This document shows, piece by piece, positions 6,834 through 30,485 of a stretch of 32,000 nucleotides of DNA. The translations under genes were made by a program, and so were the position numbers. This DNA is from Pirellula staleyi DSM 6068. GTDB taxonomy: Bacteria; Planctomycetota; Planctomycetia; Pirellulales; Pirellulaceae. The first letter of the stretch is position 1, and every line of letters starts with the position of its first letter. The notes beneath the pieces were generated by a model. The model was not told where the DNA came from, did no database searches, and saw nothing but the letters and a program-made list of their open reading frames with translations. The stretch is taken from positions 4,470,001 through 4,502,000 of the forward strand of contig CP001848.1 in the NCBI GenBank assembly GCA_000025185.1, written 5' to 3'.

Positions 6834-6861
6834 TATCTTCTAACATCCGAAAGCTTTAAGC

Positions 6862-8772: not shown

Positions 8773-8788
8773 CGACCCGCGATCGAGG

Positions 8789-9589: not shown

Positions 9590-9591
9590 CG

Positions 9592-10269: not shown

Positions 10270-10483
10270 TATCTGCCTACCTGAATGCTGCTTAACAATA
10301 TTCCAGTAGCAGCTTGGGTAGATTTAGGCGGTTCGCTTCACAAAATACAACCACTTTAATATCCACCTTAGATTATGATTTAATTTCTATGGGGCTAGCC
10401 AGCTGTGGTTATCTGCAGACATACTGTTGCCGCAACTGGGAATAATAATGTGATGCGCAACCTTTTAGCTGAGCTGGTATCCG

Positions 10484-11494: not shown

Positions 11495-11543
11495 TTACCT
11501 TACGCGCGTGAGCTTGAAGTTGTGCACATCGCGCACCAAGCCT

Positions 11544-12731: not shown

Positions 12732-12877
12732 AATTATTTACTCTCAAACTTTGCTGTAGTAGCAACTGATCTTAATTTCGCATCTTTTAAGTAGCAGCGC
12801 AAGCAATCTAAAAACGGAAGCTTAACGAATCAGCTGCAGTCGATTATTGAATTCTTGGCAAGTTTGCAAGAATCTGG

Positions 12878-12907
12878 TTGACAAATCATCACTCGAGTTG
12901 CCATACT
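12878..12907 (+). promoter_or_regulatory. Candidate sigma-70-type promoter for the giant gene (TTGACA-N18-CATACT)
   Basis: TTGACA at 12878-12883, an 18-nt spacer, then CATACT at 12902-12907, in the 459-bp AT-rich divergent intergenic region. It would give a leader of roughly 275 nt. The giant gene's RBS, AAGGA, lies about 8 nt before the ATG at 13191. This is a pattern match only. Confidence 0.3.
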
Positions 12908-13190
12908 CCCCGCCGGATTAAAAATAGCTCGTTAGGTGGGTTATTTCAATCCATAGGAGTGCTTCTTACTCTACCTGTCTTTTCTGTTTTCCTGCTTCCT
13001 GGCAGTCGGCTCGCGATGCGCGCCGAGCGATCCACCGCCGGCCTAGCTCACGATTGCCACTAACGATCGTCTGCTAGGCCACTTGATTAGATTTCGACCG
13101 ATCGCCTTAGCATTTTTTCAAAGCCTTTTGACCAGACGCGTCAACGGGTCCGCTGATGCTGCGCCTGTACACGACTAAAGGATTTACATC

Positions 13191-16100
13191 ATGACAATCT
13201 CGCGCAAAGAGTTGGCTCGTCAAAAGAAGCGTCAAAAAGAATTGCGAGCTGCCATATTGGCTCGGCGCGAGCGCCGGTCGCTCATCGAGCAGCTCGAGCC
13301 GCGTCAAATGATGGCGGCTGAAGTCAGCAACTTTAGGCTTTGGTATGACTCAGGTTATTCGTCGACCGACAAGGTCTCGAGCGATACTCGCCTGGCTGGT
13401 GCCCTCGCTTTTGGTAGCGGAAATTCGGGGCGCATCGACTTTGATCATAACGGCGATAGCAATGTCGATGGGACTATTTCGGTCGTTAACTCAGGTGGCA
13501 GCTTTAAGTATGAGCCGCGCGACAATGGTCTCAGCGAGTCGTTTACCGGTGCGCTCGATCTGAAGTATCGCGCGGTGGAACTCGACAGCTACGGCGGTGT
13601 GCTCAATACCGGCAGCTGGACCAGTTTTCCGATCACCGTCGAATCGCGCCTCGGCGCCGATCTGCAGAACCTGCATCTCGTGAGCGATACTGGGAGCTCT
13701 TCGACCGACAAAGTGACGAGCGATTTGCGACTCGCAGGCGCTGTAACGTGGGATGGCTACGGTGGTTTTGCGCAGGTGGAGTTCGATCTGCATAACGACG
13801 GCACAGCCGATGGCTATGCCGGGCTCTGGTGGTCGGGCGAAAGTTTTGAAGTGAACCTGCGGAACATGGGGCTCTCGTCGTCCTATAGCGGCGCGCTTCC
13901 GCTGAAGTATCGCATCGTGGAATTCGATAGCTACAGCAGTCCACTCTATACCTCGGACTGGCAAAGCTTTGCGATCACCGTGGAGACTCCGCGGCTGTAT
14001 GGCAACGTCAATTCGCTGCAGCTGGTGAGCGATACCGGAAGTTCCTCGACCGATAAGGTGACCAGTGATCCGCGCGTGAGCGGCTCGATTTCTTGGGATG
14101 GCTACGGCGGCTCCGTGCAGATCGAGTTCGACCACAACAACGACGGCACTTACGACGGCTATGCCGGAACGTACTACAGCGGCGGCAGCTTCACCTACGA
14201 CCCGCGTAACTGGGGATTGTCGTCGATTTATAGCGGCGAATTGCCGCTGCGCTATCGCATTGTCGAGCGCGATGACTACTACAACACGCTCTTCACCGGA
14301 TCGTGGCAGGATTTCACGATCACCTTGGAGCCGCAGCGCATCAACGCAGTGATGAGCGGCCTCGCGCTGGTGAGCGATACCGGCACCAGCAGCACCGACA
14401 AGCTCACGACCGATCCGCGCCTCACCGGCAACGTCAGCTGGGATGGCTACGGCGGCTACGTCGACGTCCAGTTCGATCACAACAACGACAACTACTTCGA
14501 TGGCTATGCGGGCGTCTGGTCGTCGGGAAGTTCGTTCAACTACGATCCGCGCAGCTGGGGACTTTCGAGCGAGCACGCGGGCGTGGTGCCGATGCGCTAT
14601 CGGTTCGTCGAATACAACGAGAACTACACGGCGATCTACACCAGCAGCTGGACCAGTTTCGAGTACACGATGCTAGCGCCGCGGCTCAACGCCACGCTCA
14701 GCGGTCTGGCGCTCGTGAGTGATACCGGCACCAGCAGCACCGACAAAATTACCAGCGATCCGCGCGTGTCGGGAAGTGTGACTTGGGATGGCTATGGTGG
14801 CTGGGTCGATGTGCAGTTCGATCACAATTCCGACGGCTCTTACGATGGCTACGCGGGTATTTGGTCGTCGGGAGGCTCATTCACCTACGATCCACGCAAC
14901 TTTGGACTTTCGAGCAACTACTCGGGCGAATTGCCGCTGAAATATCGAACCGTCGAGTACTCTAGCGGCGGCTCTACTTTGTTCACTAGCAACTGGGCCA
15001 ACTTCCCCATTACCATCGAACAGCCGCGGCTGAATGCGACGCTCACCGGGCCGCAACTAGTGGTAGATGATGGAGCCTCTTCCTCCGATCGTGTGACCAC
15101 CGACCCGCGCGTGTCGGGAAGCGTCACTTGGGATGGCTACGGCGGCTCGGTGCAACTGCAGTTCGACCACGATGCCAACGGCTCGCTCGATGGCTATGCC
15201 GGAATTTACAGCTCGGGGAATTCGTTTACCTACGATCCGCGCAGCTTTGGGCTTTCGTCGAGCTACTCGGGAAGCTTGCCGCTGAAGTATCGCGTCGTCG
15301 AAATGGACTCCTACGGCGGAACGCTCCACACCAGCAACTGGCAAGATTTTGCGATCACGATTTCGGGAGCCGAGCCATCGGCCACCCTCGCGAACTTGCA
15401 TCTGGTGAGCGACACCGGCACCAGCAGTACCGACAAAATCACCAGCGATCCTCGTCTCGCTGGTAACGTGAACTGGGACGGCTACGGTGGCTATGTGACG
15501 GTCGAGTTCGACCACACTGGCAACGGTTCCGTCGATGGATCAACGACGCTCTACATGAGTGGCGATGCTTTTCAGTACGATCCTCGCAGTAGCGACCCAA
15601 GCCTTTCAACCTACGCAGGCACGCTCCCGCTGAAGTATCGCTTGGTCGAAAACACCTCTGGCGGAAGCACCATTGTCGGTTCGTGGCAAACGTTTACCTA
15701 CACTCTTGTGGGTCAGTCACCCGCTCCCGAAATCACCGTCGTCGATTCGAGCATCGCGCCGATAGCCGACGAAATCGGCTCCTATTCCTTTGGGACGACT
15801 GTCGCCGGTTCCTCGATCGTGCGAACCTTCACGATCGTGAATCAGGGGACCGGCACACTCACGCTCGATGCCAATAGCCTTTCATTGCCGAGCGGCTTTG
15901 CGCTCGTTTCGACGTTCGACAGCACCGTCGATCCCGATGGCGGGACCACGACGTTCAGCGTCCGGCTCGAGGCGACTACGCCCGGGGTTTACAGCGGCAC
16001 ACTCTCGTTTACCAGCAACGATGCCGATGAGAGCCCTTACAACTTCACCATCACAGGACACGTTCTGTCGGCTGAAGCTGAAATCGATGTCGAGCGCGCA

Positions 16101-19100
16101 GATGGCTCGAATCTTGCCGATGGAACTGGGACGCTCAGCTTTGGTGCGACAGCCACCGGTACTGCTGTTTCGCGCACCATCACGATTCGCAACATTGGCT
16201 ACAGCACCCTGGTGCTCGACGACGAGTCACTCTCGCTGCCGAGTGGCTATTCGCTCGTCAGTGGATTTGCCACCTCGGTTTCTCCAGGTGAATCGACCTA
16301 CCTCACCGTTCAGCTCGATGCGTCGTCCGCAGGCACCTATGGCGGACAGCTTTCGTTCACCACCAACGACACGAGCGAAGGGATCTTCAACTTCCAGCTC
16401 ACTGGCACCGTCGAAGCCCCCACTCCCGAAATCGTGGTTCGGCTGGCGAGTGAATCCAATCGCTCGCTCTACAGCGGATCGGATAGTGTCGACTTCTCCT
16501 GGGCGCAGGTCGGTGGCGCCAATGCACGCACCTTGCTGATCGAAAACACCGGGACCGGCACTCTCACGCTCGATAGCGCGTCGCTTGTTCTTCCGGTTGG
16601 ATTTCGCGTCGCCACCCCGTTTGCCGCCACGGTAGCCCCCGGCGCAAGCACTTCGCTGATTGTGGAATTTGCCCCCGGATCGGAAGGTTTTCATTCCGGA
16701 GAACTTTCGTTTGTGACAAACGATTCCGACGAAGGACTCTTTCGGTTCACACTCCACGGCGAAGGGTATGGGAGCGGTACACCGAGCGGCACGCAGCTGA
16801 TCGTTGGGCTTCGCAACGACACCGGGATTTCATCGAGCGACAAAGTCACTTCCGACTACCGGATTCAGGGAGAAGTGACGGGACTAGCTGCTGGCGAATC
16901 GGCTCGCATTGCGATCGATCTCGGGACCGATGGGATCGCGGAAACGGAAATCACCGTCACGGCCGCCAGCCCCGAGTTTGCCTTCGATCCTACGACCATC
17001 GCCAGTTCGTTTGCAGCGACACTCGGCGCTAAACTGCTCCGCTTCAAAGTGACCTATTTCGACGACCAGGACAACGAGATCGGCACCGGAAATTGGCAAA
17101 CGTTCAGCTATGCCTTGGAAGCGATTCCGGTCCAGATCACCCCGACGCTCCTCACCGATACTGGCCCGATTTACAACGACTCGATCACCTACCTTCCGAC
17201 CCTCTCCATTGCCGTGCAGAAGCATAGTGGCAGTGGCAACATCCGCTTGGAGTTTGATCACGACGCTGATGGCGATGTCGATGGCTCGGCAGCTGTTCCC
17301 TATTCCTACACGGTGCTGCAGTATGATCCGCGCGTGAGCGATTCGTCCTTTGCAGCATTGCGGGGTGAAATCCCGCTCCGCTATCGCGCGGTGATGATCG
17401 ATGGCAATGGTGAGCCGATCGCTCTGGGGGCCTGGAACAACTTCACCATCGAGCAGACAGGGGACACCCGTGCCGAGGGTTTGCTGCTATCGGAACTGGG
17501 GCTCAGTTTGGACTCCGGTGTTTCAAGCACCGATCGCATTACCTCGTCACCCGTGATTTATTTTGTCGCGAGTGGTGAGTTGGAAACGGGGAGCGGCGCG
17601 GTCGACTTCGATTTTGAAGGGAACGGTTCGGTCGACACGACGCAGCTGGTCGATCAACTCGACCAAGAATACTTATTCGACCCACGTACGCTTGGTGGAT
17701 CGGAGTATGAGACCAACGGCGCGAAAGAAATCTTTTTCCGCGTGCGTAAGCTCAATGAACTCGGTCTTACGGAGGCCACAGGGGACTGGCAGCCGTTTCG
17801 CTTCACCTTCGAGTCAGCTCCTACCTCGACAGCTTCGCTCCAAAACGTGGCGCTGCTGCACGACACCGGCGCAAGCAGCACCGATCGTGTGACGAGCGAT
17901 GGGACGATCAAGGGAATTGTGCAAAGTGGCGAGGCCTACTCAAATTTTGCGTTTGTCGAAGTCGACTGGACCGGTAATGGGACGGTGGATGATGTCATCC
18001 CAGCGGTTCATGGTCTCGCAGGATGGGAGTTCCGCGCCACTCCACGCTCACTGAGCTACGGCACCTACGATACGCTGCTGCGAGTGCGTGAATGGAGCGA
18101 TCAGTTTGGCCAGTATCGCTATTCCGCCTGGAGCGAGTTCAGTTTTGAGTTCGTCGCGATGAGTTCGCCTGCCATCGCGAGCCTGAAACTCGAAGGGATC
18201 GATGCCAGCATCAGCAGTTATGTGACTGCCCATGAAACAACGCTGCTGGGAGAAGTCGCAACACCGGTTGACCGCTCCTACATCATCTACCTCGATGCCA
18301 ACGGCGATGAGATCGCCGAAGCAACGGCCTACAGCGATGGGCAAGGGAAGTTCTCCATCGAAACACCCATCGCCGCGGCTGGAAATGTCTCCGTGCGGCT
18401 GCGCACCGCTGTTTACGATCCGATCCTGCAATCCGAGATCCTCGGACCTTGGCGATCGTTTGCCTTCAGTTACGAATCGAAAGCGCTCGCCAATGTTACC
18501 GAGCTTTCGCTGCAAACGGATACCGGCACCTCGGCGACCGATGGCATTACCAAAGACCCGACCGTGAAAGGAAAAGTGACTCCGCCGACCACAGCCACCG
18601 GCATCTCGGTGAGTGGCGTGCTGGTCGAGTTTGATGAAGATGGGGATGGCGATGCGGAGGGATTCACCAGCACCTCGACCACCGGAGAGTTCAGCTATCG
18701 TCCACTCACACTCTTGCCTGGCACCGTGACAATCCGCGCTCGATCGCGCGCATTCGACGAAAATCTACGCACCAATATCTACGGCACATGGAAAGAGTTC
18801 ACGTTCACGCTCGAGGCCACAACTTTTGAGACCGGTACGGTAAGTCTATCGCTTGCGAAACCGAGCGCGACGAACTCTGCCCAAACCACCGATCCGGCGA
18901 TCAAAGGAACGACGGTGATTGGCAGTGGTCGGCACGCGGTAGTCGAATTCGATCACAACGGCGATGGAACCCCCGAAGGTTCGGTCGCTACCGACACAAC
19001 GCATCAGTTCACCTATGTTCCTATCGGAATGGGGGTAGGGAGCCACACGATTCGTGCTCGGGTGCGCGAATGGAATCCGGTTGCGCGACAGCTTGTGATC

Positions 19101-22100
19101 GGCGACTGGATCGAAATGAACTACACCGTTGTCACCACAACGAATCAAACACCCACAGTCACCAGCCTCGCGCTGGCCAGTGATTCGGGGAGTTCTGCCA
19201 GCGATCTCATCACCGGCAATTCGCTACTCACCGGCACGATCAACAACCCCGATGGTGCGGAAGCAGGATTGCCGGTCGAGATCGATGTGAATAGCGACGG
19301 CCTAGGGGACACGATTGTGTTTGCCGATAGCCTGGGACAGTTCAGCTATCAAGTTGAAGCGATCCCCTACGGCGCGAATACCGTTCAGGCCCGCGCGATC
19401 GAATGGGACGAGCCTTCGGGTCAATATCTGATTAGCAGTTGGCAAAGCTTATCGTTCACCTATGTCGCCCCCAGTGGCGAAGCCGCCTATGTAAGCGAGC
19501 TCACCACCGTTACACCTCCCTACTATGGCCAAGTGCTCGATCCGATTCTTACCGGGCAAGTGATCAACGATGGATCGCTGAAAGACATTGTCGTCGAACT
19601 CGATTTCAACGGCGATAACACCATCGATGTCCGGACACTCACCGATAGTAATGGGCACTTTGAATATCGCCCGGTCGGACTTGCGCCAGGCAACTATGCA
19701 ATTCGGGCCCGGGCTCGCGAACTCGATACCATCACGGGCCAACTCACCACAAGCGGATGGACCACTCTCTGGTTCGAGCTTCTCGCTTCGAACAACCAGG
19801 TCGCCACACTTTCGCCACTAGCGCTTGTGGAAGATACCGGAACCGTAGGGGATGGCAAATCGGCGAATCCCTCGCTGAAGGGGACGGTCACGAACGATGG
19901 CTTGTATAGTGGCCTCGTCGTGCAAATCGATCACAACGGCGACGACATTGCCGATGGTGTTGCGGGAGTCGATAGCACAGGGAACTTCACCTACACTCCG
20001 CACGGTTTGGCCTATGGCACCTACACATTCCGAGCGCGGGTGAAGGAGCTGAATCAGCTCGGCACGCCGATGTATAGCAGCTGGCAAACCCTTGCGCTCG
20101 ACTACCAACCCGAGGCATATCAAGGGGTCAAGATCACCACACTCAATCTGGCGAGTGACACCGGTAATTCAGCCACCGATGGAGCGACGTCCAACCCATC
20201 GCTGACTGGCTCGATTAGTGGAACGACCAGTCCGATCGTGATCCGCTTTGATCACAACGGAGACGAAGTTACCGACGGCACCGCGACGACCGATGCCCAA
20301 GGGAACTTCAGCTACTCGCCAAGTGGGCTCACCGAAGGACTGGTTACGATCCGCGCTGCTGTCGAAGGAACGACAATCGCCAGTGGGCTGCGCTGGACCA
20401 CCAAGACCTTTGTCTACTCCACAACTCCCGATGGCGAAACAGCGCAAGGACTGGTCCATACCCACCTGACTTACACCGCCGCTTGGCAGCGAGCAGGAGA
20501 CGACTATAACGCCGCGATCAGCGCCGCCAACTCACTCTACACGTCGATCCGCGACCGGGCCGCTCTGACCTACGATGCCTCGGTCGCCAGTTCCACCCTC
20601 GCACGCGACGCCGCGCTCGCGCAGGCTCAAGAGGCATACAGCCTCGCCACTGCTGCCGCCGAAAGCACCTATGCCTCGCAGATGGCCGATATCCAAGGCC
20701 AATTCATGCTCGACCTAGCGGCCTATGGCGGGGACACAACGACGTTTCAGCTGCGCGAGTTTGCCTGGCCCACGTCGCCAAGCTCGATGGGACTCGAAAT
20801 TCCGAGCGATGCGTCGCAGCCCACAGCGCCGCAAATGATCAGCGAGACGAGCACCTACTACGACTGGTCGAGCGACACTGCTTATCAAGGGGCCATCGCC
20901 GCTGCGAACAACAGCTACCAGACCGAAAAACTCGAAGCCGAGAACATCTACTCGGCAGCGAAAAAGAGTGTCGACGACACCTATAACTCAGCCGTTAGTG
21001 GAGCCAATCGAACTCACTCGGAAGAGGTCGCAGCGGCCAAGAAAGCTTACGACGACGCGCTGCTGGTGCCGATCACGAATGCGGTCGACATGGTCGCCGC
21101 GACGAGTGACTACAGCAGCGCCATCGCCAATGCCACCGCGCAGCGCGATCGCGTGTTGGCCCGCATCGATACGGGCGATATCTACCAGCAGCGCAGCGCT
21201 CTCGAGAACTGGCGCGATGCCCAGATGTACGCTTGCTCGACCTGGGAGTACGAAGCTCGTATCGCGCGCGAGCGCGACATCTGGGAGGAATATCACCACC
21301 GCTATGCCGACATCGAAAAAATCGTTGCCGACCGGATGGCCAAAGCCGATTACGACTACGGCGTCGCTGTCGAGAATGCCGCCGTCGCCTTCAAGCACAA
21401 AGAAATCGACCGTGATCAGCAAGTCGAGCAGCGAAAAATCAACGCGGCTGCGGTTCGCGATAAAGCAATCAATGCCGCCGATGCCAAACGCGATAAAGCG
21501 ATTGCCACCGCGCAGTTTGAAAAGACCAAGGCACTCGCTGTGGCAGCGAAAGCCTTTGATTCAGCTGTCGAGAAAGCGCGGCTCGATTCGGTGAAAGAAC
21601 AATCCGATGCGCGCACCTCTCCGCTTGCGAGTTGGGCCGATGGGCTCGGGACACGCTGGACCACTTACTACAAAGAGATCGTTGGGCACGATGTCGATCA
21701 TGTGAGCAGCATCGTCCCCAAAGCGGAGGAGCGTTACGAAAGCGATCTTGCCACTGCCAAGACCGAGATCGAGAAGATCGCCGAAGAAAAGAAGAAACTC
21801 GCCCACGAAAAGAGTGATCTGACGCTGACGAAAAAGAATGCCGAAGTCGATTCCGACAAGGTGTTTAGTACTGCTGAGAATGTCGCAGAAATCACGCGTA
21901 AAAAGGCGAACGAAACTGCCTTTAGCGAGTTCAAAAAGAAAGATTTGGAGATCACGCGAGATTTCAAAATCGAGGATGCGACGAACCATCAGAGCTACAC
22001 GAAGGCGGCTGCCACACTCGACCGCAGTGTCGATCGGGATGCCCCGGTTTACGTCTGGAGTTCGAGCCACCAGTCGAACATTCTGAATCAAGCGCGCATC

Positions 22101-25100
22101 AACGACTACTACGAGTATTTCGTAGGCACGGGCTCGGCGGGATCGGAATCGGGCGGAGTCTACGCACTCCTCTACAGTCGGGCTCAATCGCTCGAAGCCA
22201 ACGATCTGACACGTGCCACCGCGCGAAACAATGCCTGGCACACATATCAAACAGCCGTTTATGGCCACGCGCGAACTCGCGCCGAGGCAACAGCAACGGC
22301 AGCCGAAGTGCGCGACAAGTCAAAAGCCGATGCTGCTTTCACCTTCACGACGACCTACGCAGAAAAGTACTCGGCTTATCTGAAGTCGACGTCGGAAGCC
22401 TCGAAAACAGCTGCTGACGAGGAGACCGCAAGTGACACTACGTACAACGCCCATCTGAATGAGGCTGAGGTCCAGCGTAATGATAGCGAGGCGGAAACCA
22501 CCAACGACTATCGGACCGGACTAGCTGAAGATCACAAGGATCAGGTCGGATCGTGGGGGACAGCACTCGACTCGGCCTGGGGAACGCTACAAAAAACGCT
22601 CGCCGATACCAACTTCGATCAGATCGTTGGACTAGGCGCAGCACTGGTCACCAACACCAGCACACTGGGTGGATTTGCGCTCACTCACGCCGATGAAATC
22701 GGCTCGAGCCTGCAGCAGCTTGTCGAGGGGATTGTCGCTGCCGACGACACCGAAACGCAGGCCCATTCCGATGCGATTGTCGCCTATGCCACGAAGGTTG
22801 CGACCGAGCGAAAGGCCTATGCGTACAAGCTTGCAGCGGCCAATAAAGAGCACGATTTTGCGGTGGCAGAAAAAGATGAGGCCTATCGTGTCGGAGTCTC
22901 CGAACGTCAGCGGGTGTACGAAAATGCGGTCGCTGCTCTCAAGTTCGATGCCGAAGATTCTCACCAAACCACGCCGAATGTCATTTACGTAGGCTCGGCG
23001 TCGTCGATCGATTTCCGCCTAGCAGCGCTCCATATGATCTTCTCGGCCGACGATAGCCCCATCACCGGCTATGGTATTCGGATCGGGCAAGCTGACGTCG
23101 ACTATCTCCGCGCGCTGGCAGCACTACAGAAGACTGAACTCGCTAGCCAAACGAGCAACTACACTCTCTCGGAAAACTATCACACACAAAAAACAGCCAT
23201 CGGCGATACCTGGCAAGCCGCCATGCGCTCGCAGCATGAAGGTTACGAAAAAGCCAAATTCGCCGCAGAACGAACACGCGCCGAAGGGGATGTCAACGAT
23301 CATCAAACGTGGGTCCTCGGGATTCAGAACGACCATGTCACGCTCGCCGAAGAAGCCCAATCGGCAGCCAACACTTTGGCCGATGCGCTCGCCGAAGCGA
23401 CCACCAGTCTCGCCACCGATCAGGCCGATGCGGCCCGCGCCTTCTCCGAAGAGGTTGCCGCTGCTGACAAGTCGTACACCGACGACACAACCAGTGCCGA
23501 TGTCGAGTACTCCAACGATGCTCTCGGCGCCGACAACAGCTACTCGCTCGGCTCCATCACTTCGAGCAATGCCTACGAAGAGGCGATCGTAGGGGCTCGC
23601 GGCAACTACGAAGAAACCCTGCACCAGCAGCACCTCGCGAAGCTGCAATCAGCGACAGTTCCAGCGGGGGCGATCACCAAGCTGAACATGTATCGCATCG
23701 GAGTCGCTGAGGCGAACCTCCAGTGGTCGCAAGATCTGTGGGCCGCCCGCGAGCAGCAGCAAGCGAGTGCCTCGATGCGCAACCTCGCCTCGATCCAAGG
23801 AGGAACATCATTCCTGGGCGGCAGCGGCGGTCATTCCATCACCGGTTCCTCGTCTGCGAGCGTGACTCAAACATCGAGCATTGGCGAAGCCTACCTCGCG
23901 CACACGACCGGCACGAGCAGCGCAGTCAAGTCGCTCAGTGACGATACAGCGGATGCCATTCGCGATGTGGTGGTCGGTGTTCGCACCGCCGAGTCGAGCG
24001 ATGCTGCACGGCAAGTGAAGGCCGAGAAAACCTACGACGTCGATCATGCCATCGCCGCGCGCACGTTCCATGAATCGACCGAAGCCGCTCTCCTCGCGTG
24101 GGCCAGTGATGTACTCGATGCACGTGGTGCTTACTGGGACGAGTTTCAGAGCGAAATGTACTACGACCTTCCGGCCGAGGAAGAGGCTTGGGAGGATGCC
24201 TATGGCGGGAATCTATCGCGCGCCGAAGTCCGCGATGCCGCCATTGAAGTGGCTGACGACCAGTACGATCTCGCGATCAAAACGGCGCGTAAGGATTTCG
24301 CGCTAGAAGTCGGCGACGCCCAGATCGATCGGGCACACACCGTCACACAGTCCGCCGCGACACGGGAAGACGAAGCCGGCCAGGCGGTGATCAATGGTCA
24401 GTCGAGCCTCAATTCGGCCGAAACCAGCTACATCGGCACCACCAACGGGCTCAACAATGCGAGCGCCTCAGGCTACGGCCTGGCCGACAAGATCTACGAC
24501 GAGGCCACCGCCAAGATCAACGAGTTTCTCACCGAACTCAACGGCAACTCTAGCATCGCCTATGCCACCGTCCTTGCGAATGCTCGTACCAGCCGGGCGG
24601 TTGCATTAGCGACTGCTGAGGCCGATTACCACATCGCGATGGCCACCACAACCGCCACTCGCGAGAACGCTCTCTATCAATCGATGGCCACCGCCAATCC
24701 GGCCGATCCACTCCTCACCTATCACCAATTCCTCGCCTCCCAATCCACCGCTTATGTCAGCTGGCTCTCTGGCATGAAGCCCGCCTACGCCTCCTACATC
24801 GAATCGATGAGCGAGGCGGTCAGCGCCGAATCGATTGCCTTTGCGGAAGCTCAAGCGGCAGTCGATCGCGCTCGTGCCCAGTCGCAGCGCGAACGTGCAT
24901 TTTCAGCTGCCGAGCGCTGGATGAATAGTGAAATCGCCGAGACTTCCGCTTATGGCGATTACCGCACCGCCGAAGCGACTTCGCGTCATGCTCGCGATCT
25001 CGCGCTCCCAGGCTACGAACGCACCTTGCAGATGGCATACCAGGCGCAAGACGAGTCGCAGCTGGTGGCCCACACCACCGCCGAGCGCGACTACTGGTTC

Positions 25101-28100
25101 ACCATCGTCGGGGACGACGACTACAACTACTACACGTATTCCGCTGCTGCCAACTCGGCCCTCACCGCAGCTCGTGCCGCCGCCAACACCGGCTGGGCCG
25201 AGGACTACTCCACCGCCGACCTCGCCTGGACCACCAGTGTCACCACGGCCGACACCACCTATCGCGTCGCCCTGGAGAATCACAACTACGGCTACGAACT
25301 CGGCGTCGAACAGCGCGGCGAAGTTCGGACCGTTGCCGAGGCCCAGTCCGACCACGCGAAAGCGATCGCCGACAGTGCCGCTGAACGAACATTCGATCTC
25401 GCACTCACCGCAGCCTCCAATGCCCGGCGCACTGCCGAGTTCACCGCCGCTGCTGATTTCCAAGGAGCCGACTACCAGGCTCAGGCCACCGCCATCGCCA
25501 GCATCAGCACCGCAATGAACCTCCCTTGGCTCACGTTTGAAGCGGATCTCGCAGGGGTGAAACTGAGCTGGTGGACCAGCACCGGCCGCACCGAGTGGCT
25601 CGACGCTGGCATCGATCTGAACGAAGCCGACACCACCTACGCCATCGCTGCCGCCGATGTCAACGCTGCGCATCGCGTCACCGTCGCCGGTGCCGATCGC
25701 GACCTGGCGATCTCCGAAGCCGCGCGTCAGCGCATTCGCCGCACGGGAGAACTGGCAGCCGACCGTGATTTTGCAATCACCTTCGCGGGAGTCGACCAGG
25801 CCTATCAACTGGAACTGGCCCAAACGCGTAACTACTACCGGAATGCTCAAGCAGCACTGACCGAAGACTACGCCGACGAAGCGGCTGCATCGCAGTACTT
25901 CTTCCTCAGCAGCACCCCTGAGTTCGCGGCAATCGAGTCCCAAAAATCAGCCCGATCCACCGCTGCCAACGATCGCTGGCTCGTCGGCATCACCGCCGGT
26001 GAAGGGGCCCAAATGCAAGCCCACGCCGCCGCCCTCCTCAGCTACGCCACCTCCTGGCGCAACGACAACCTCGCTTACGAAAACACATTCCTCACGAGCA
26101 TCCGCGATCGTGACCTTGCTCTTACTACGCACTCCAATATCCAAAAACTTTCCTACGCTGAACTATACCGCGACTACCAAATCGATTCTGCGACTACCTT
26201 CGCCATTACCATCGACTCCTTTGTCTCCACAAACACCACACCTTGGTCCATTCGAGTCGCTGAGGCAGGAGATGCACAATCGGATCGGACAGAAGGTGTT
26301 GCAAACGCGATATTCGAGTTTAAAGAAATTGAATTCTTAGAAGCACATGATCTCGCAATATCCAAGATTCTTTCGGCGTTCGAGCACAATCGTGATTCCC
26401 GACTCTCTGGGATCGAAGAGTCGATGGTAGAGGACATTGCTCGAGCCCTCCGCGACAATAACCTTGGTCAGGTGCTCACAAATTGGTCTACCAATGACAG
26501 TTCTAACCTGCGCACCTTCGATTCTACTACTGAAACTACTCCTAGCGCTGAAGGCCCCGCACCCTCGCGAACTACCCGTCCGGGAACAGGAACAAATTCG
26601 AAGAAGCCGAACGAAACAACGCCCGCAAAAGCAGAGCCTCTGTCGAGTAACAATGTCGCATCTGATGGTTCCGATTACAGATACTCGCCTGCAACCAGTC
26701 AAGAATCAATTAAAGACGATGTTTCTGATGAATACACTCCCCATCCGCCATTACCCCGTTTAGTTCTCGATCCTCGAATTGGCGAGTATGTCCTAGCTGA
26801 CCAGGTTAGTAGCTCTTCTGACTACTATGATGTCCCCTCGCAATCTCGCATTAACGCATCAAATCGATACAATCCATCGCCTGATTACATAGAGGTTCAG
26901 AGTCAGCTGTCGGCTCGCTATTACGCCGATGACAACAAGAAACAAGGATATGTCGGGTTCGTCTTCGACACACGACCTGAATTGAAAGAAATGGGAGTGC
27001 TAAATGTTTCTATCGAATCATTTGAACGATTAAACTATCTCTTTGCAGGCGATAGCAACACTAGCATAACGTCAATTGAACTAGCCATTGCTGCTATGGG
27101 ATTGGCTGGCTCTGAATGGAAGCGGTCGACTGAGAACTTTAAAATTGGAGAAAACGTCTATGAAATAATTGTTCTCGAAAATGAAGCAACGGAGGACACA
27201 TGGTATGCTGTTCCCGAGGTTGTGTACACATTTAAGGATGGATATGTTCCCGAGAGCCGTGGGTTGAGTGATCCATTTACGGCGGCTAAGCCCTACCTAG
27301 TTTTTTTGGCAATCCCATATCCCGGACTGGCTAAACAGGTTTACTTATGGTCCCCCAAAGAAGCAGAGCCGCTTGGGCCAAAGCTAGTGGGAGTTACATT
27401 TTATTCTTCGCGAAGTAACGTAGAATACGCCCTCTCAGGCACAAAACGTATTGAGTTGTTGAACAAACTTGCAATAAGCTATGGAGTCGGTGTAGGTGCC
27501 TTGAATATTCAGTCTGTATTCAAGTCAGCGACTGCATCCGTCAAGTCGGTCTCTAGTGTGTCATCGATCGCATCAGAGACGACAGGAGCTCTTGACAATC
27601 TCGCTCAGACAGTCACTGTTGCCGACAATGCGACACCTTCCTCCGCTGATATCTTCGCTGAAATCGCAAAATCAGGCGACAATGCCTCCCAGTCCACCGT
27701 CGACACGTTCACCGATTTAGCCAAGAGTCTTGACGAGGCACCACCTCTAGATCAATCTAATGCTCCAAACAGAACTCCTTGGGACACAATTGACCACTTC
27801 CGGTCGCACAAGCAAGGAATGGCTGAACTAGGGGATGCTATTCCTGTTAAGGGGGACAAGCTAGGAACTGTTGCCTTTGTCGAGATAGAAGGCAGCAAGG
27901 TATTTGGGGTAAATTCAACAGCGTTAGTAGACGATGCAGACAAAGCCTTGGGACGTATGTGGCGAGATCGCCTTGGCTTCAACTCCGGACAAGCTCAAGC
28001 ATTGTTTCATGGGGAGGCCCATTCGCTCATGCGTGCCTATGAGAAGTTTAGTGGTAAGCTCCCTAAAGATCTGACCCTCTATGTCGATCGACTGACGTGT

Positions 28101-28223
28101 GGGCCATGTCAGGGGGCATTACCCGATCTCATGAAGGCAATGGGGATTGAGCGTCTTAAGATTGTGACAAAGAGTGGCAGGGTTGGTGAAATCTCTGGAG
28201 GAGTGTTCAGATGGTTGGAGTAG
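13191..28223 (+). CDS. Giant (5,010 aa) modular surface/secreted polymorphic-toxin-like protein with C-terminal nucleic-acid deaminase-like domain
   Basis: A single uninterrupted ORF of 15,033 nt with an AAGGA RBS. The domain order is given in the sub-features below. The codon and GC pattern matches host genes until about 26,250. Every other long ORF in this interval is an antisense or alternate-frame artefact. Confidence 0.95.
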   Translation: MTISRKELARQKKRQKELRAAILARRERRSLIEQLEPRQMMAAEVSNFRLWYDSGYSSTDKVSSDTRLAGALAFGSGNSGRIDFDHNGDSNVDGTISVVNSGGSFKYEPRDNGLSESFTGALDLKYRAVELDSYGGVLNTGSWTSFPITVESRLGADLQNLHLVSDTGSSSTDKVTSDLRLAGAVTWDGYGGFAQVEFDLHNDGTADGYAGLWWSGESFEVNLRNMGLSSSYSGALPLKYRIVEFDSYSSPLYTSDWQSFAITVETPRLYGNVNSLQLVSDTGSSSTDKVTSDPRVSGSISWDGYGGSVQIEFDHNNDGTYDGYAGTYYSGGSFTYDPRNWGLSSIYSGELPLRYRIVERDDYYNTLFTGSWQDFTITLEPQRINAVMSGLALVSDTGTSSTDKLTTDPRLTGNVSWDGYGGYVDVQFDHNNDNYFDGYAGVWSSGSSFNYDPRSWGLSSEHAGVVPMRYRFVEYNENYTAIYTSSWTSFEYTMLAPRLNATLSGLALVSDTGTSSTDKITSDPRVSGSVTWDGYGGWVDVQFDHNSDGSYDGYAGIWSSGGSFTYDPRNFGLSSNYSGELPLKYRTVEYSSGGSTLFTSNWANFPITIEQPRLNATLTGPQLVVDDGASSSDRVTTDPRVSGSVTWDGYGGSVQLQFDHDANGSLDGYAGIYSSGNSFTYDPRSFGLSSSYSGSLPLKYRVVEMDSYGGTLHTSNWQDFAITISGAEPSATLANLHLVSDTGTSSTDKITSDPRLAGNVNWDGYGGYVTVEFDHTGNGSVDGSTTLYMSGDAFQYDPRSSDPSLSTYAGTLPLKYRLVENTSGGSTIVGSWQTFTYTLVGQSPAPEITVVDSSIAPIADEIGSYSFGTTVAGSSIVRTFTIVNQGTGTLTLDANSLSLPSGFALVSTFDSTVDPDGGTTTFSVRLEATTPGVYSGTLSFTSNDADESPYNFTITGHVLSAEAEIDVERADGSNLADGTGTLSFGATATGTAVSRTITIRNIGYSTLVLDDESLSLPSGYSLVSGFATSVSPGESTYLTVQLDASSAGTYGGQLSFTTNDTSEGIFNFQLTGTVEAPTPEIVVRLASESNRSLYSGSDSVDFSWAQVGGANARTLLIENTGTGTLTLDSASLVLPVGFRVATPFAATVAPGASTSLIVEFAPGSEGFHSGELSFVTNDSDEGLFRFTLHGEGYGSGTPSGTQLIVGLRNDTGISSSDKVTSDYRIQGEVTGLAAGESARIAIDLGTDGIAETEITVTAASPEFAFDPTTIASSFAATLGAKLLRFKVTYFDDQDNEIGTGNWQTFSYALEAIPVQITPTLLTDTGPIYNDSITYLPTLSIAVQKHSGSGNIRLEFDHDADGDVDGSAAVPYSYTVLQYDPRVSDSSFAALRGEIPLRYRAVMIDGNGEPIALGAWNNFTIEQTGDTRAEGLLLSELGLSLDSGVSSTDRITSSPVIYFVASGELETGSGAVDFDFEGNGSVDTTQLVDQLDQEYLFDPRTLGGSEYETNGAKEIFFRVRKLNELGLTEATGDWQPFRFTFESAPTSTASLQNVALLHDTGASSTDRVTSDGTIKGIVQSGEAYSNFAFVEVDWTGNGTVDDVIPAVHGLAGWEFRATPRSLSYGTYDTLLRVREWSDQFGQYRYSAWSEFSFEFVAMSSPAIASLKLEGIDASISSYVTAHETTLLGEVATPVDRSYIIYLDANGDEIAEATAYSDGQGKFSIETPIAAAGNVSVRLRTAVYDPILQSEILGPWRSFAFSYESKALANVTELSLQTDTGTSATDGITKDPTVKGKVTPPTTATGISVSGVLVEFDEDGDGDAEGFTSTSTTGEFSYRPLTLLPGTVTIRARSRAFDENLRTNIYGTWKEFTFTLEATTFETGTVSLSLAKPSATNSAQTTDPAIKGTTVIGSGRHAVVEFDHNGDGTPEGSVATDTTHQFTYVPIGMGVGSHTIRARVREWNPVARQLVIGDWIEMNYTVVTTTNQTPTVTSLALASDSGSSASDLITGNSLLTGTINNPDGAEAGLPVEIDVNSDGLGDTIVFADSLGQFSYQVEAIPYGANTVQARAIEWDEPSGQYLISSWQSLSFTYVAPSGEAAYVSELTTVTPPYYGQVLDPILTGQVINDGSLKDIVVELDFNGDNTIDVRTLTDSNGHFEYRPVGLAPGNYAIRARARELDTITGQLTTSGWTTLWFELLASNNQVATLSPLALVEDTGTVGDGKSANPSLKGTVTNDGLYSGLVVQIDHNGDDIADGVAGVDSTGNFTYTPHGLAYGTYTFRARVKELNQLGTPMYSSWQTLALDYQPEAYQGVKITTLNLASDTGNSATDGATSNPSLTGSISGTTSPIVIRFDHNGDEVTDGTATTDAQGNFSYSPSGLTEGLVTIRAAVEGTTIASGLRWTTKTFVYSTTPDGETAQGLVHTHLTYTAAWQRAGDDYNAAISAANSLYTSIRDRAALTYDASVASSTLARDAALAQAQEAYSLATAAAESTYASQMADIQGQFMLDLAAYGGDTTTFQLREFAWPTSPSSMGLEIPSDASQPTAPQMISETSTYYDWSSDTAYQGAIAAANNSYQTEKLEAENIYSAAKKSVDDTYNSAVSGANRTHSEEVAAAKKAYDDALLVPITNAVDMVAATSDYSSAIANATAQRDRVLARIDTGDIYQQRSALENWRDAQMYACSTWEYEARIARERDIWEEYHHRYADIEKIVADRMAKADYDYGVAVENAAVAFKHKEIDRDQQVEQRKINAAAVRDKAINAADAKRDKAIATAQFEKTKALAVAAKAFDSAVEKARLDSVKEQSDARTSPLASWADGLGTRWTTYYKEIVGHDVDHVSSIVPKAEERYESDLATAKTEIEKIAEEKKKLAHEKSDLTLTKKNAEVDSDKVFSTAENVAEITRKKANETAFSEFKKKDLEITRDFKIEDATNHQSYTKAAATLDRSVDRDAPVYVWSSSHQSNILNQARINDYYEYFVGTGSAGSESGGVYALLYSRAQSLEANDLTRATARNNAWHTYQTAVYGHARTRAEATATAAEVRDKSKADAAFTFTTTYAEKYSAYLKSTSEASKTAADEETASDTTYNAHLNEAEVQRNDSEAETTNDYRTGLAEDHKDQVGSWGTALDSAWGTLQKTLADTNFDQIVGLGAALVTNTSTLGGFALTHADEIGSSLQQLVEGIVAADDTETQAHSDAIVAYATKVATERKAYAYKLAAANKEHDFAVAEKDEAYRVGVSERQRVYENAVAALKFDAEDSHQTTPNVIYVGSASSIDFRLAALHMIFSADDSPITGYGIRIGQADVDYLRALAALQKTELASQTSNYTLSENYHTQKTAIGDTWQAAMRSQHEGYEKAKFAAERTRAEGDVNDHQTWVLGIQNDHVTLAEEAQSAANTLADALAEATTSLATDQADAARAFSEEVAAADKSYTDDTTSADVEYSNDALGADNSYSLGSITSSNAYEEAIVGARGNYEETLHQQHLAKLQSATVPAGAITKLNMYRIGVAEANLQWSQDLWAAREQQQASASMRNLASIQGGTSFLGGSGGHSITGSSSASVTQTSSIGEAYLAHTTGTSSAVKSLSDDTADAIRDVVVGVRTAESSDAARQVKAEKTYDVDHAIAARTFHESTEAALLAWASDVLDARGAYWDEFQSEMYYDLPAEEEAWEDAYGGNLSRAEVRDAAIEVADDQYDLAIKTARKDFALEVGDAQIDRAHTVTQSAATREDEAGQAVINGQSSLNSAETSYIGTTNGLNNASASGYGLADKIYDEATAKINEFLTELNGNSSIAYATVLANARTSRAVALATAEADYHIAMATTTATRENALYQSMATANPADPLLTYHQFLASQSTAYVSWLSGMKPAYASYIESMSEAVSAESIAFAEAQAAVDRARAQSQRERAFSAAERWMNSEIAETSAYGDYRTAEATSRHARDLALPGYERTLQMAYQAQDESQLVAHTTAERDYWFTIVGDDDYNYYTYSAAANSALTAARAAANTGWAEDYSTADLAWTTSVTTADTTYRVALENHNYGYELGVEQRGEVRTVAEAQSDHAKAIADSAAERTFDLALTAASNARRTAEFTAAADFQGADYQAQATAIASISTAMNLPWLTFEADLAGVKLSWWTSTGRTEWLDAGIDLNEADTTYAIAAADVNAAHRVTVAGADRDLAISEAARQRIRRTGELAADRDFAITFAGVDQAYQLELAQTRNYYRNAQAALTEDYADEAAASQYFFLSSTPEFAAIESQKSARSTAANDRWLVGITAGEGAQMQAHAAALLSYATSWRNDNLAYENTFLTSIRDRDLALTTHSNIQKLSYAELYRDYQIDSATTFAITIDSFVSTNTTPWSIRVAEAGDAQSDRTEGVANAIFEFKEIEFLEAHDLAISKILSAFEHNRDSRLSGIEESMVEDIARALRDNNLGQVLTNWSTNDSSNLRTFDSTTETTPSAEGPAPSRTTRPGTGTNSKKPNETTPAKAEPLSSNNVASDGSDYRYSPATSQESIKDDVSDEYTPHPPLPRLVLDPRIGEYVLADQVSSSSDYYDVPSQSRINASNRYNPSPDYIEVQSQLSARYYADDNKKQGYVGFVFDTRPELKEMGVLNVSIESFERLNYLFAGDSNTSITSIELAIAAMGLAGSEWKRSTENFKIGENVYEIIVLENEATEDTWYAVPEVVYTFKDGYVPESRGLSDPFTAAKPYLVFLAIPYPGLAKQVYLWSPKEAEPLGPKLVGVTFYSSRSNVEYALSGTKRIELLNKLAISYGVGVGALNIQSVFKSATASVKSVSSVSSIASETTGALDNLAQTVTVADNATPSSADIFAEIAKSGDNASQSTVDTFTDLAKSLDEAPPLDQSNAPNRTPWDTIDHFRSHKQGMAELGDAIPVKGDKLGTVAFVEIEGSKVFGVNSTALVDDADKALGRMWRDRLGFNSGQAQALFHGEAHSLMRAYEKFSGKLPKDLTLYVDRLTCGPCQGALPDLMKAMGIERLKIVTKSGRVGEISGGVFRWLE
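13320..15740 (+). repeat. Seven tandem Ig-like (adhesin-type 'DTGxSxxDxxTxD') repeats; units 2-7 are exactly 345 bp / 115 aa apart
   Basis: Unit starts are at 13320, 13671, 14016, 14361, 14706, 15051 and 15396. Consensus: L.LVSDTG(S/T)SSTDK(I/V)TSDPR(V/L)(S/A)G.V.WDGYGG.V.V(E/Q)FDHN.DG..DGYAG...SG.SF.YDPR..GLSS.YSG.LPLKYR.VE. Stretches such as ctggtgagcgataccggcaccagcagcaccgacaa recur at the DNA level. Confidence 0.9.
15726..16773 (+). repeat. Three tandem ~116-aa choice-of-anchor-D / ASH-like beta-sandwich modules
   Basis: Each unit reads PEI.V....(FG)....G....RT..I.N.G.G.L.LD..SLSLPSGF.LVS.F...V.PG.......V.L.....G.Y.G.LSF.(T/S)ND..E..(Y/F)NF...G. An example is SFGTTVAGSSIVRTFTIVNQGTGTLTLDANSLSLPSGFALVS...LSFTSNDADESPYNFTITG. 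Confidence 0.7.
16790..20412 (+). repeat. About 11 divergent Ig-like modules of the same adhesin type
   Basis: Module-start motifs recur: LRNDTGISSSDKVTSD, LLTDTGPIYNDSITY, LSLDSGVSSTDRITSS, LLHDTGASSTDRVTSD, LQTDTGTSATDGITKD, LASDSGSSASDLITGN, LVEDTGTVGDGKSANPSLKG and LASDTGNSATDGATSNPSLTG. Each is followed by (E/I)(F/I)D.(N/D)GDG..(D/E) and ...R(A/V)R. The module count is approximate. Confidence 0.7.
20440..26450 (+). repeat. About 2,000-aa Ala/Thr/Asp/Glu-rich, Cys-poor region, presumably alpha-helical, with an 11-residue (33-nt) aromatic periodicity
   Basis: Hand-checked registers have an aromatic residue at i, i+11, i+22, i+44 and i+55. In DDYNAAISAANSLYTSIRDRAALTYDAS...QEAYSLATAAAESTY the Tyr residues fall at 0, 11, 22, 44 and 55. 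In NSYQTEKLEAENIYSAAKKSVDDTYNS...KKAY they fall at 0, 11, 22 and 44. In KSYTDDTTSADVEYSNDALGADNSYSLGSITSSNAYEEAIVGARGNY they fall at 0, 11, 22, 33 and 44. GWAEDYSTADLAWTTSVTTADTTYRVALENHNYGY gives W0, W11, Y22 and Y33. KVFSTAE...AFSEFKKKDLEITRDFKIEDATNHQSY gives F0, F22, F33 and Y44. The boundaries are approximate. Confidence 0.75.
27800..28220 (+). other. C-terminal deaminase-like toxin domain (HxE...CxxC; DddA/SCP1.201-like by motif and element order)
   Basis: Sequence: KLGTVAFVEIEGSKVFGVNS...AQALFHGEAHSLMRAYEKFSGKLPKDLTLYVDRLTCGPCQGALPDLMKAMGIERLKIVTKSGRVGEISGGVFRWLE. H4940-G-E4942 lies at nt 28008-28016 and C4970-G-P-C4973 at nt 28098-28109, with 27 residues between the Glu and the first Cys. 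The inferred order strand-strand-(HxE helix)-strand-(CxxC helix)-strand-strand fits the cytidine-deaminase fold. Confidence 0.7.
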
Positions 28224-28675
28224 ATCAAGTGAATCGCTTTCATAGCACATTCAGATCCTTCGGAAACCAAGGGGTCGATCCAATCGAGTGGGAACGACAC
28301 TTCTTAAATTACCACGTTTCCGAATGGTTGTCCGAAGGCGATGGAGTCCTCCAGTTCTTTTCCCATGATGGCAAGCGGTACTCGCTGGTTCTTGTTCACG
28401 TGCCGAGTCGTGGGTTTGTTCTTCAATACGATTGCCGAGATTTGTCCTTGCAGAAGACTGTCTCTTGCAAGTACGCAGTGTCAGATCAATCGCAGTTGTC
28501 ATGTTTTGAAGAGGTGGCAGACGGCCTTATTTATCCGACTGGTTGTATTTTGCCCCCTTCAACAGCTTGGGTTGCCGTGAAGGGATTCCTAATCCATCCG
28601 ACTCTACCCTCAAATGATGTTGAGTGGATCGCAGATCAAGACATTCCTTGGCCAGAGTCGCAACGAGAATCATGA
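28211..28675 (+). CDS. Putative cognate immunity protein for the C-terminal deaminase toxin (family unassigned)
   Basis: 154-aa ORF whose ATG at 28211 overlaps the giant gene's last codons and TAG (28221-28223) by 13 nt, which suggests translational coupling. An alternative GTG start is at 28229. The protein is small, appears cytoplasmic, and has no signal peptide or TM helix. Trp residues lie near the C-terminus (DVEWIADQDIPWPES). It shares the reduced GC of the toxin end. The function is inferred from position only. Confidence 0.65.
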   Translation: MVGVDQVNRFHSTFRSFGNQGVDPIEWERHFLNYHVSEWLSEGDGVLQFFSHDGKRYSLVLVHVPSRGFVLQYDCRDLSLQKTVSCKYAVSDQSQLSCFEEVADGLIYPTGCILPPSTAWVAVKGFLIHPTLPSNDVEWIADQDIPWPESQRES

Positions 28676-28914
28676 AATCGTTCGCCCGTGCGTGAGTGTG
28701 ATTCACCGTCACGATGAAAAAGAAACAGGAGCATTGCCATCACGGGACAGGGGGTGACCACCTTGCCTGCCAGGGGAATCGCCTGGAATTGTTTGATTCT
28801 TATCTTTGTGGCAGCGGTTGCTTGGCGATGGCAAGGTAGTTTATCTGCCCGGCAGAGAATGGCGGCGATGGCTTGAACAAGTGATCCATCGCTTGACCCT
28901 ATTGGTTCTGAATT

Positions 28915-28933
28915 GGCGTCGCCAGACGCTTTT
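28915..28933 (+). terminator. Weak hairpin plus T-tract (GCGTC-GCCA-GACGC-TTTT)
   Basis: A 5-bp GC-rich stem with a 4-nt loop followed by TTTT, about 240 nt downstream of the immunity ORF and between convergent genes. The stem is short, so support is low. Confidence 0.2.
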
Positions 28934-29000
28934 GCCGTGGTCTTAGAAGGTTAGATCCTATGCATGTTGTTTCGTCATCTGGGGAGGTGGAGGTTGGTGG

Positions 29001-30176: not shown

Positions 30177-30485
30177 GGGAGAACCTTTCGCGAAGGGGAG
30201 TGGGAGGCGCGGCTCGTGTAGGCGGGAGTCGGTCGGCTCGATCAGCGTGTAATCCATTATGTCGAAATGTTCCGATGTGTCAACATAGCAGTCGGGAGCA
30301 GGCTTTGTAGAGAAGTCAGAAACAGCCTGTTCGACGTACGAAATTGCCGTTCTGGCAGTGCGTGCTGGGGAGGGGATTTTGAAGCAAGCGAGGCGCTGGC
30401 GGAGCTGAATCTGGCTGGCCTGGTGAAGCGACTTGGGCTACGATGCAAGCTCCCGCCTAACTTCCGCTAGCCCACCTGCTTACCG

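Follow-up and report, generated by a model that had tools for sequence, protein, structure and literature searches.

Polymorphic toxins at the tip of long filaments have been described before. Iyer et al. (2011) outlined the general model, in which a filament bears adhesion modules of the immunoglobulin (Ig) type and, at its tip, a toxin; they list planctomycetes under the MafB19 clade of deaminases, with a sequence from Pirellula staleyi among those aligned in their Figure 3. Later, Table 1 of Zhang et al. 2012 (PMC3482391) sorted the trafficking of such toxins into the classes Sec/type II secretion system (T2SS), type V (T5SS), type VI (T6SS) and type VII (T7SS) secretion systems, TcdB/TcaC, PrsW and PVC. 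Here, we consider the giant gene Psta_3456 and its downstream neighbour Psta_3457 in P. staleyi DSM 6068, within a stretch of 32,000 nucleotides (nt) of contig CP001848.1 (positions 4,470,001 to 4,502,000), hereafter the window. Psta_3456 (13191..28223 of the window; plus strand, as for all features below unless stated otherwise) was recognised by an exact-sequence match (ADB18118.1 / WP_012912380.1); its product of 5,010 amino acids (aa) is annotated in databases as “hypothetical” or “choice-of-anchor D domain-containing protein”. In our assessment, Psta_3456 and Psta_3457 probably form a polymorphic toxin-immunity system, the chassis of which is specific to planctomycetes. Three aspects are new here: the leader of this toxin carrier, which is of the PF07595 type and not of any catalogued route; the definition of a helical stalk family and of a pre-toxin domain; and a strain-level swap of the toxin with exact breakpoints.

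Each of the closest described systems shares part of this organisation. CdiA/CdiB systems of contact-dependent growth inhibition, which belong to T5SS, resemble Psta_3456 in having a very long surface filament, a polymorphic C-terminal toxin, a pre-toxin domain, an immunity gene downstream and orphan modules in relatives, and carriers of the CdiA type with filamentous haemagglutinin (FHA) and PT-VENN domains (P0004, P0008) bear the same MafB19-type deaminase. However, Psta_3456 lacks the two-partner secretion (TPS) domain, the FHA repeats and the VENN motif, there is no CdiB gene in its flanks, and its filament, unlike that of CdiA, combines Ig-like modules with a helical bundle behind a leader with a planctomycete motif. 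Rhs/YD toxins, which are associated with T6SS, Sec or TcdB/TcaC, also swap tip/immunity cassettes at a conserved junction and use the same deaminase family (P0005, P0010), but their RHS/YD repeats, PAAR, VgrG, SpvB and the aspartyl-protease junction of the Rhs core are all missing from Psta_3456. MafB of Neisseria, after which the MafB19 deaminase clade is named, has the PF14437 toxin domain and a downstream immunity gene in common with our locus, whereas neither its N-terminal domain (Pfam, NCBIfam) nor a MafA-like neighbour is present here; moreover, Psta_3456 is roughly ten times larger. Closer to home, giant proteins with a PF07595 leader in Rhodopirellula baltica and Tuwongella immobilis share the type of N-terminal motif, the very large size and the Ig-like repeats, but those described in PMC8567305 are reported to carry trypsin, Ig-like and integrin-beta domains and no toxin tips, while the leader of Psta_3456 heads a toxin-immunity system.

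Finally, the RTX giant adhesins (LapA, SiiE, MpIBP) are, like Psta_3456, rods of many tandem Ig-like modules, and this likeness would be the reason to regard our protein as an adhesin of the type I secretion system (T1SS) that gained a toxin domain. We find this origin extremely unlikely: RTX/HemolysinCabind repeats are lacking, the C-terminus is the toxin, so that there is no C-terminal secretion signal, and no genes for an ATP-binding cassette (ABC) transporter, a membrane fusion protein (MFP) or TolC were found in the 13 kb before and the 4 kb after the gene, at the corresponding locus of a sister strain or beside related genes.

The evidence that carries our reading comes from this sister strain, which is represented by the Logan assembly SRR845265 and an NCBI contig (locus L008) and whose protein P0152 (4,809 aa) is the second member of the cluster formed by Psta_3456 at 90% identity. 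Gene order in L008 follows that of the window throughout, and blastn aligns the two at 98.2% identity over 3194-26183 and again over 28687-32000, whereas nothing in L008 matches window positions 26184 to 28686. This interval (26184..28686; 2,503 bp) comprises codons 4332-5010 of Psta_3456, i.e., the last 679, and Psta_3457. Correspondingly, the two proteins match at 97–100% as far as aa ~4290 and have nothing in common after it, with identity decaying from 97–100% to 80%, 53%, 40% and ~20% across aa 4281-4400. The interval also has a low GC content (48.2%; the scaffold has 58.4%, the remainder of the window 57.8%), which falls sharply at ~26150 and recovers at ~28900, and the cassette of the sister strain is low in GC as well. 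There, the replacement block of 4,870 bp contains an unrelated tip, a 207-aa open reading frame (ORF) overlapping the stop codon of the tip by 4 nt, a DDE transposase of the IS4/5 family (25035-25853 of L008, minus strand) and an orphan module with its own small ORF (26492-27808, plus strand), namely the C-terminal half of a HINT domain followed by ~140 aa, then a 128-aa ORF. Since the transposase lies between the main toxin/immunity pair and the orphan module, mobile elements accompany cassette turnover at this site.

These alignments show that tip and immunity gene are exchanged as a 2.5-kb cassette, which recombines at a fixed junction close to where the stalk ends, so that strains of one species carry different toxins on the same fibre. 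That Psta_3456 is a polymorphic toxin is thereby strongly supported by sequence comparison. An initial annotation, made from the letters of the window alone, had proposed a polymorphic toxin on a long surface fibre and had called for homologous scaffolds with different tips in related genomes; the sister strain provides one, with an unrelated tip/immunity block, and the proposal is further sustained by the AHH, PT-HINT and other tips found on distant relatives (see below). In the window itself, no orphan toxin/immunity cassette was found 3' of Psta_3457, positions 28676-29000 being intergenic and followed by a minus-strand methyltransferase gene; orphan cassettes are common in this toxin class, though not obligatory at every locus.

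At face value, a compositionally foreign cassette might also be the mark of a decaying relic, i.e., a surface protein with a foreign insertion that is no longer deployed, all the more so as a related gene, on metagenome contig L001, is broken up into three ORFs. This, however, is very improbable for Psta_3456, which has a 15-kb frame free of interruptions, intact catalytic motifs and, overlapping its stop codon, an intact immunity ORF, while the scaffold is conserved at 96–100% between strains that differ in their tips, as expected of an actively used system.

The toxin module (27747..28220; aa 4853-5010) has a MafB19-like cytidine-deaminase fold according to Pfam, with PF14437 (MafB19-deam) matching aa 4867-5010 at E 1.6e-28. 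Its zinc motifs FHGEAHS and TCGPCQG align with the HGE and PCxxC of yeast cytosine deaminase, leaving HxE and CxxC intact, which are the clade signature in Table 1 of Iyer 2011 (HxE in helix 2, CxxC in helix 3). The module is 71% identical to the tip of a giant protein from another locus (P0001, locus L002; BLASTP) and 47–59% identical to Rhs- and FHA-borne tips (phmmer). On the basis of these matches, we assign the tip of Psta_3456 as a predicted cytosine deaminase of the MafB19 type; the initial annotation, too, had taken the C-terminus to be the toxin. Enzymes of the MafB19 family deaminate cytosines of both single- and double-stranded DNA in vitro (bioRxiv 10.1101/2023.06.29.547047).

The candidate immunity gene, Psta_3457 (28211..28675; 154 aa), has a start that overlaps the end of the toxin gene by 13 nt. 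An ORF in the same overlapping position behind the L002 toxin (148 aa, the same 13 nt) is 57% identical to Psta_3457 (E 7e-64), the ORF after a MafB19 tip at another locus (L004) is 23% identical, and, across the loci compared, each different tip is trailed by a different small ORF. From this position and co-variation with the toxin, Psta_3457 is a candidate cognate immunity protein. When considering delivery, the initial annotation had made no use of either this overlapping ORF (28211-28675) or the GC drop at ~26150. The 90% cluster of Psta_3457 holds six near-identical copies (at least 90% identity), all on short contigs of JGI, ENA and Logan samples and none on the contig of the sister strain; hence, the toxin/immunity type of Psta_3457 occurs in several environmental samples.

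Beyond the species, the same pair sits on an unrelated chassis. P0001 (3,625 aa; L002 10001-21312), a protein of planctomycete type, combines Calx-beta/PPC repeats with a long Ser/Thr/Asp-rich region, a scaffold unrelated to that of Psta_3456, and yet ends in the same deaminase followed by the same immunity gene, the pair being 67% identical to the window at the DNA level over 650 bp. Because of this shared pair, the cassette is seen to circulate between different giant surface proteins, and since the L002 homologues (71% for the toxin, 57% for the immunity protein) are joined by a more distant immunity homologue in L004, the toxin gene and its small downstream ORF pass together from one unrelated scaffold to another. 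The toxin module also ends an SpvB/FG-GAP/RHS protein and an RHS protein (P0010 and P0005), as well as hemagglutinin-repeat and PT-VENN proteins (P0008 and P0004); RHS and SpvB were detected in P0005 and P0010 by the same profile search that found none in Psta_3456.

Conversely, relatives of the Psta_3456 stalk end in other tips. A HMMER search with aa 3900-5010 retrieved 210 proteins at E ≤ 1e-3; stalk homologues among them are 24–35% identical over partial stretches and 19–28% identical over the full 491-aa segment (alignment A1), and they share the core motif ARRTAE...ADY...NLPW.Y...WW. P0068 ends in an AHH nuclease followed by Imm11, whereas P0103, of locus L001, has a PT-HINT domain, another tip and a small ORF, with Ig and helical parts collinear with aa 1805-4207 of Psta_3456 (E 1e-140). 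At L004, the MafB19 tip and its small ORF precede a fragment of a Y1 transposase and then an orphan AHH/Imm11 pair. At L006, behind the main gene and a small ORF, an 853-aa ORF starts mid-scaffold, is 50% identical to the stalk of the upstream gene and leads into another tip with a small ORF; it is an orphan module of the classical kind, complete with homology arm. Tips without annotation are those of P0034, P0044, P0052/P0070, P0118 and P0144, Pfam offering no annotation for those of P0034, P0044, P0052, P0070, P0118, P0114 and P0152. Motifs resembling PD-(D/E)xK, GIY-YIG or ParB were read in some of these tips, by eye only.

As for L001, gene calling divides its giant gene into three ORFs (2-8023, 7944-17051, 17121-18299), and the HINT domain is where the second break falls; the gene is either decaying or split by an assembly or frameshift artefact. 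Towards the N-terminus, it has cadherin-like/VCBS and Calx-beta repeats that are absent from Psta_3456. Other searches for relatives were poorer: a word-sharing search (8,000 candidates each for the cassette, aa 4270-5010, and for alignments A1 and A2) returned a single 87-aa fragment; pattern scans of metagenome contigs yielded nothing at first and one 2.2-kb contig in a second scan; and pattern scans of genome contigs of species representatives gave no scaffold relatives, a weak negative given that the patterns of the source strain itself were also unconfirmed.

Turning to the scaffold, Psta_3456 is a single uninterrupted ORF that begins at its first possible start codon, with an AGGA 9–12 nt 5' of the ATG. 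Its anatomy was established by comparing ten overlapping 600-aa segments with Pfam and NCBIfam and by aligning the protein with itself (self-BLAST). Seven tandem Ig-like modules of ~115 aa (13308..15740; aa ~40-850), identified by self-BLAST and Pfam Big_13, are 45–72% identical to each other, and a 345-bp tandem repeat lies inside this array (14355-15292). They are followed by three modules of the choice-of-anchor-D or HYDIN/ASH beta-sandwich type (15693..16775; aa ~835-1195), matched by NCBIfam NF012200 (E 1e-31 and 8.4e-34) and by Pfam HYDIN_VesB_CFA65-like_Ig and ASH, the three copies being mutually similar in self-BLAST. Then come ~11 more divergent Ig-like modules (16779..20390; aa ~1197-2400; self-BLAST and Big_13, E 2.7e-12 and 6.3e-18), a region that is 39% identical to the Ig part of locus L005 and collinear with P0103. 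This brings the Ig-type modules to 21, in keeping with the initial annotation, which had counted 7 + ~11 Ig modules and three choice-of-anchor-D sandwiches and had seen no Rhs/YD, TPS/FHA, PAAR, LXG or VENN signature: at E ≤ 0.1, neither Pfam nor NCBIfam gave any match in Psta_3456 for Rhs/YD, Fil_haemagg/TPS, PAAR, LXG, PT-VENN or RTX.

The Ig array leads into an Ala-rich, non-repetitive helical stalk of ~1,930 aa (20391..26183; aa ~2401-4331), for which Pfam and NCBIfam have no match (aa ~2400-4330). The initial annotation had described a ~2,000-aa hendecad region here, but the periodicity is marginal (peak of the hydrophobicity spectrum at 11.4 residues, power 85 vs. a shuffle maximum of 75) and AlphaFold2 gives an up-and-down helical bundle instead. 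Modelled on an 11-sequence alignment, aa 3900-4390 reach a predicted local distance difference test (pLDDT) score of 91.5 and form up-and-down helices of 73, 130, 115, 105 and 39 residues, with turns at the LPW and PW motifs; the hairpin-turn motifs, ARRTAE...ADY...NLPW...WW and ...TPW..., are conserved. Compared with the PDB by Foldseek, the model gave only generic long-helix matches (E ≥ 0.03) and no significant fold counterpart. Kinship of the PW hairpin turns with WXG/LXG proteins was considered and rejected, having neither profile nor fold support, and no LXG or WXG100 N-terminal helical domain was matched by Pfam in Psta_3456.

Between stalk and toxin, a Ser/Thr/Pro-rich linker, a globular pre-toxin domain of ~180 aa and an Ala/Ser-rich linker follow one another. 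The unannotated pre-toxin domain (26949..27491; aa 4587-4767; signature WY.VPEV...F(Y)SS..V.Y.LSG) has no Pfam match, and two moderately hydrophobic stretches lie near it. P0114 has the domain too (29% identity, E 1e-18), and a short stretch of it matches the orphan module of L006 (E 7e-5 to Psta_3456, E 1e-5 to P0114); from there, P0114 and the orphan module run on into different C-termini. Since the domain is modular, directly precedes the variable tip and is close to hydrophobic stretches, we infer that it may serve in release or target-cell entry, by analogy with the pre-toxin/entry domains of CdiA.

The fibre could be read differently, namely as an adhesin in the first place, from which the toxin is freed by proteolysis to act as a diffusible bacteriocin rather than on contact. 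Long linkers rich in Ser/Thr/Pro and Ala/Ser flank the pre-toxin domain, relatives place a self-cleaving PT-HINT before the tip, and Ig and choice-of-anchor-D modules are typical parts of adhesins. Nevertheless, no protease or HINT domain was detected in Psta_3456 by Pfam, and characterised filament-borne toxins act on contact (Iyer 2011; general knowledge); neither point is decisive, but we deem a diffusible toxin unlikely.

How such a protein might leave the cell is suggested by its N-terminus, where a strongly basic stretch precedes a leader motif, RRSLIEQLEPRQMMAA (13272..13325; aa 28-45). The motif matches PF07595 (Planc_extracel) with E 5.8e-4 and 19.9 bits, below the Pfam gathering score of 25.5, and fits seven of the nine fixed positions of the consensus RRLxxExLExRxLLA, with MM where the consensus has LL. 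This consensus is thought to be a novel planctomycete export signal (PMC8567305): in T. immobilis, it heads eight of the ten longest proteins, and proteomics recovered 20 of the 52 proteins that carry it, eight of these 20 only in the fraction soluble in sodium dodecyl sulphate (SDS; S3), a fraction that also contained the cell-wall markers of that paper. The N-terminus of P0001, the unrelated giant with the same toxin, matches PF07595 as well (23.6 bits). Psta_3456 thus seems to carry a recognised planctomycete trafficking marker, albeit at a sub-threshold score, with a presumable function in export. A location at the cell surface is likewise suggested by the Ig-like and choice-of-anchor-D modules and, by analogy, by the T. 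immobilis proteomics of other carriers.

A leader of the PF07595 type has no entry in Table 1 of Zhang et al. 2012, and none of the trafficking classes of that table was detected in Psta_3456 with Pfam and NCBIfam, which returned the sub-threshold PF07595 instead. The claim of the initial annotation that the locus has no recognisable secretion-system marker therefore holds for the classical markers and classes, but has to be amended for the planctomycete leader at aa 28-45, and its suggestion of a distinct contact-dependent delivery format is only partly supported; similarly, the sensitive profile search it had recommended for a known trafficking domain brought up no classical class, but did bring up PF07595 at 19.9 bits.

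Alternatively, Psta_3456 might be an ordinary Sec-dependent polymorphic toxin (“T2SS” in the nomenclature of Aravind) with an atypical signal peptide and no special trafficking, given that Iyer 2011 and Zhang 2012 list T2SS/Sec for families with planctomycete members, including MafB19, and that Sec is their stated default. Yet the first 80 residues are devoid of a hydrophobic signal-peptide core (the basic stretch is followed by LIEQLEPRQMMAAEV), and the best 19-residue Kyte-Doolittle window of the whole protein is 1.42, the top windows being all outside the N-terminus. Indeed, nowhere in Psta_3456 is there a stretch hydrophobic enough for a Sec signal or a membrane anchor. In addition, the motif matches PF07595, which is treated in the literature as a separate, planctomycete-specific signal (PMC8567305), and we consider the Sec route quite improbable. 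It is possible instead, and we propose it tentatively, that the PF07595-type leader marks a dedicated planctomycete path for the export and display of megadalton fibres, used by these bacteria as their own contact-dependent inhibition system.

Taken together, these elements suggest the following mechanism for the toxin-immunity system. With its basic N-terminus and a leader of the RRLxxExLExRxLLA type, Psta_3456 would be exported by the route of other giant planctomycete surface proteins. Its ~21 Ig-type modules and ~1,930-aa stalk of antiparallel helices, a 490-aa part of which was modelled, would form an extended fibre, presenting at its distal end the linker, the conserved pre-toxin domain and the MafB19-type cytosine deaminase. 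The toxin would then enter neighbouring cells, probably on contact, and damage their nucleic acid by C-to-U deamination, while the producer would be protected by the translationally coupled immunity protein of 154 aa.

Several points weigh against this interpretation. The leader scores under the Pfam gathering threshold, and its link with the helical scaffold is seen in a single full-length N-terminus (Psta_3456 with its near-identical sister), so that examples are few. The family match of Psta_3457 is weak, its hit to Imm1 (E 0.19) not being significant. The MafB19 profile of Pfam is not the one of Iyer on which the enzymology paper relied, and a match to it does not settle the substrate of the tip. 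Moreover, the AlphaFold2 model of the pre-toxin domain, computed from a two-sequence alignment, is unusable (pLDDT 35) and does not show its role, contact dependence is an assumption taken over from other toxins borne on filaments, and our literature search found no paper that names Psta_3456.

The genomic surroundings, for which gene starts were refined from L008, offer no secretion-system gene over 13 kb upstream and 4 kb downstream; flank annotation and the syntenic L008 thus bear out that no T1SS, T2SS, T5SS or T6SS component lies there, as first observed. Upstream are genes for a PSCyt/PSD protein, a GntR regulator, an extracytoplasmic function (ECF) sigma factor, a Ser/Thr kinase, a CotH kinase, a VTC-domain protein, a DUF4956 protein, an FkbM methyltransferase and a glycosyltransferase, and downstream are a methyltransferase-DsrE fusion and another PSCyt/PSD gene. 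The ECF sigma ORF (3373-4602; 409 aa) is probably too long, the sister annotation starting at the equivalent of 3988 (204 aa), and its end overlaps by 4 nt the start of the kinase gene (4599-6833; 744 aa), an overlap that suggests a coupled sigma/kinase pair. The genes for CotH (6862-8772, with a 36-bp G/P-rich tandem repeat at 7240-7313), VTC (8801-9589) and DUF4956 (9592-10269) form a tight co-directional trio kept in the sister strain (L008 3669-7076). In both strains, the FkbM-family methyltransferase (plus strand) and an EryCIII-like glycosyltransferase (minus strand) lie directly upstream of the giant gene (10484-12731); that they might modify its Ser/Thr-rich fibre is pure speculation.

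Beyond the cassette, Pfam matches none of the ORFs on the minus strand at 30457-31501, which are probably spurious, the sister locus having a plus-strand PSCyt1/PSD2-5/PSCyt3 gene over the equivalent of ~30592-32526, i.e., past the end of the window. A consensus scan gave a sigma-70-like promoter candidate, TTGACA-18-CATACT with TG (12878..12907), which is weak evidence (three sites found vs. 0.5 expected); it lies ~280 nt 5' of the Psta_3456 start and would leave a long 5' leader, which has no Rfam match. The window yielded neither a tRNA nor a match to any Rfam family.

Given how well polymorphic toxins are catalogued and that the deaminase family is known, a toxin-tipped filament is in itself unsurprising. 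The tip of Psta_3456 adds one more candidate DNA cytosine deaminase for base-editing and sequencing tools, while the helical stalk family and the pre-toxin domain, which precedes at least three different tips, have no Pfam model and could join the profiles used for toxin mining. If the proposed export path is real, the PF07595-type leader would define an additional trafficking class of polymorphic toxins, beside T5SS, T6SS, T7SS, Sec, TcdB/TcaC, PrsW and PVC, and this class would bring with it a helical-bundle stalk family and a pre-toxin, perhaps entry, domain of its own. The export route of the planctomycete motif is a question standing since 2004, which would here be tied to a selectable killing/immunity phenotype. 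The two near-identical strains with different tips provide a natural experimental pair, and such a phenotype could help to find out how giant proteins are transported, and by which machinery, across the unusual envelope of planctomycetes.

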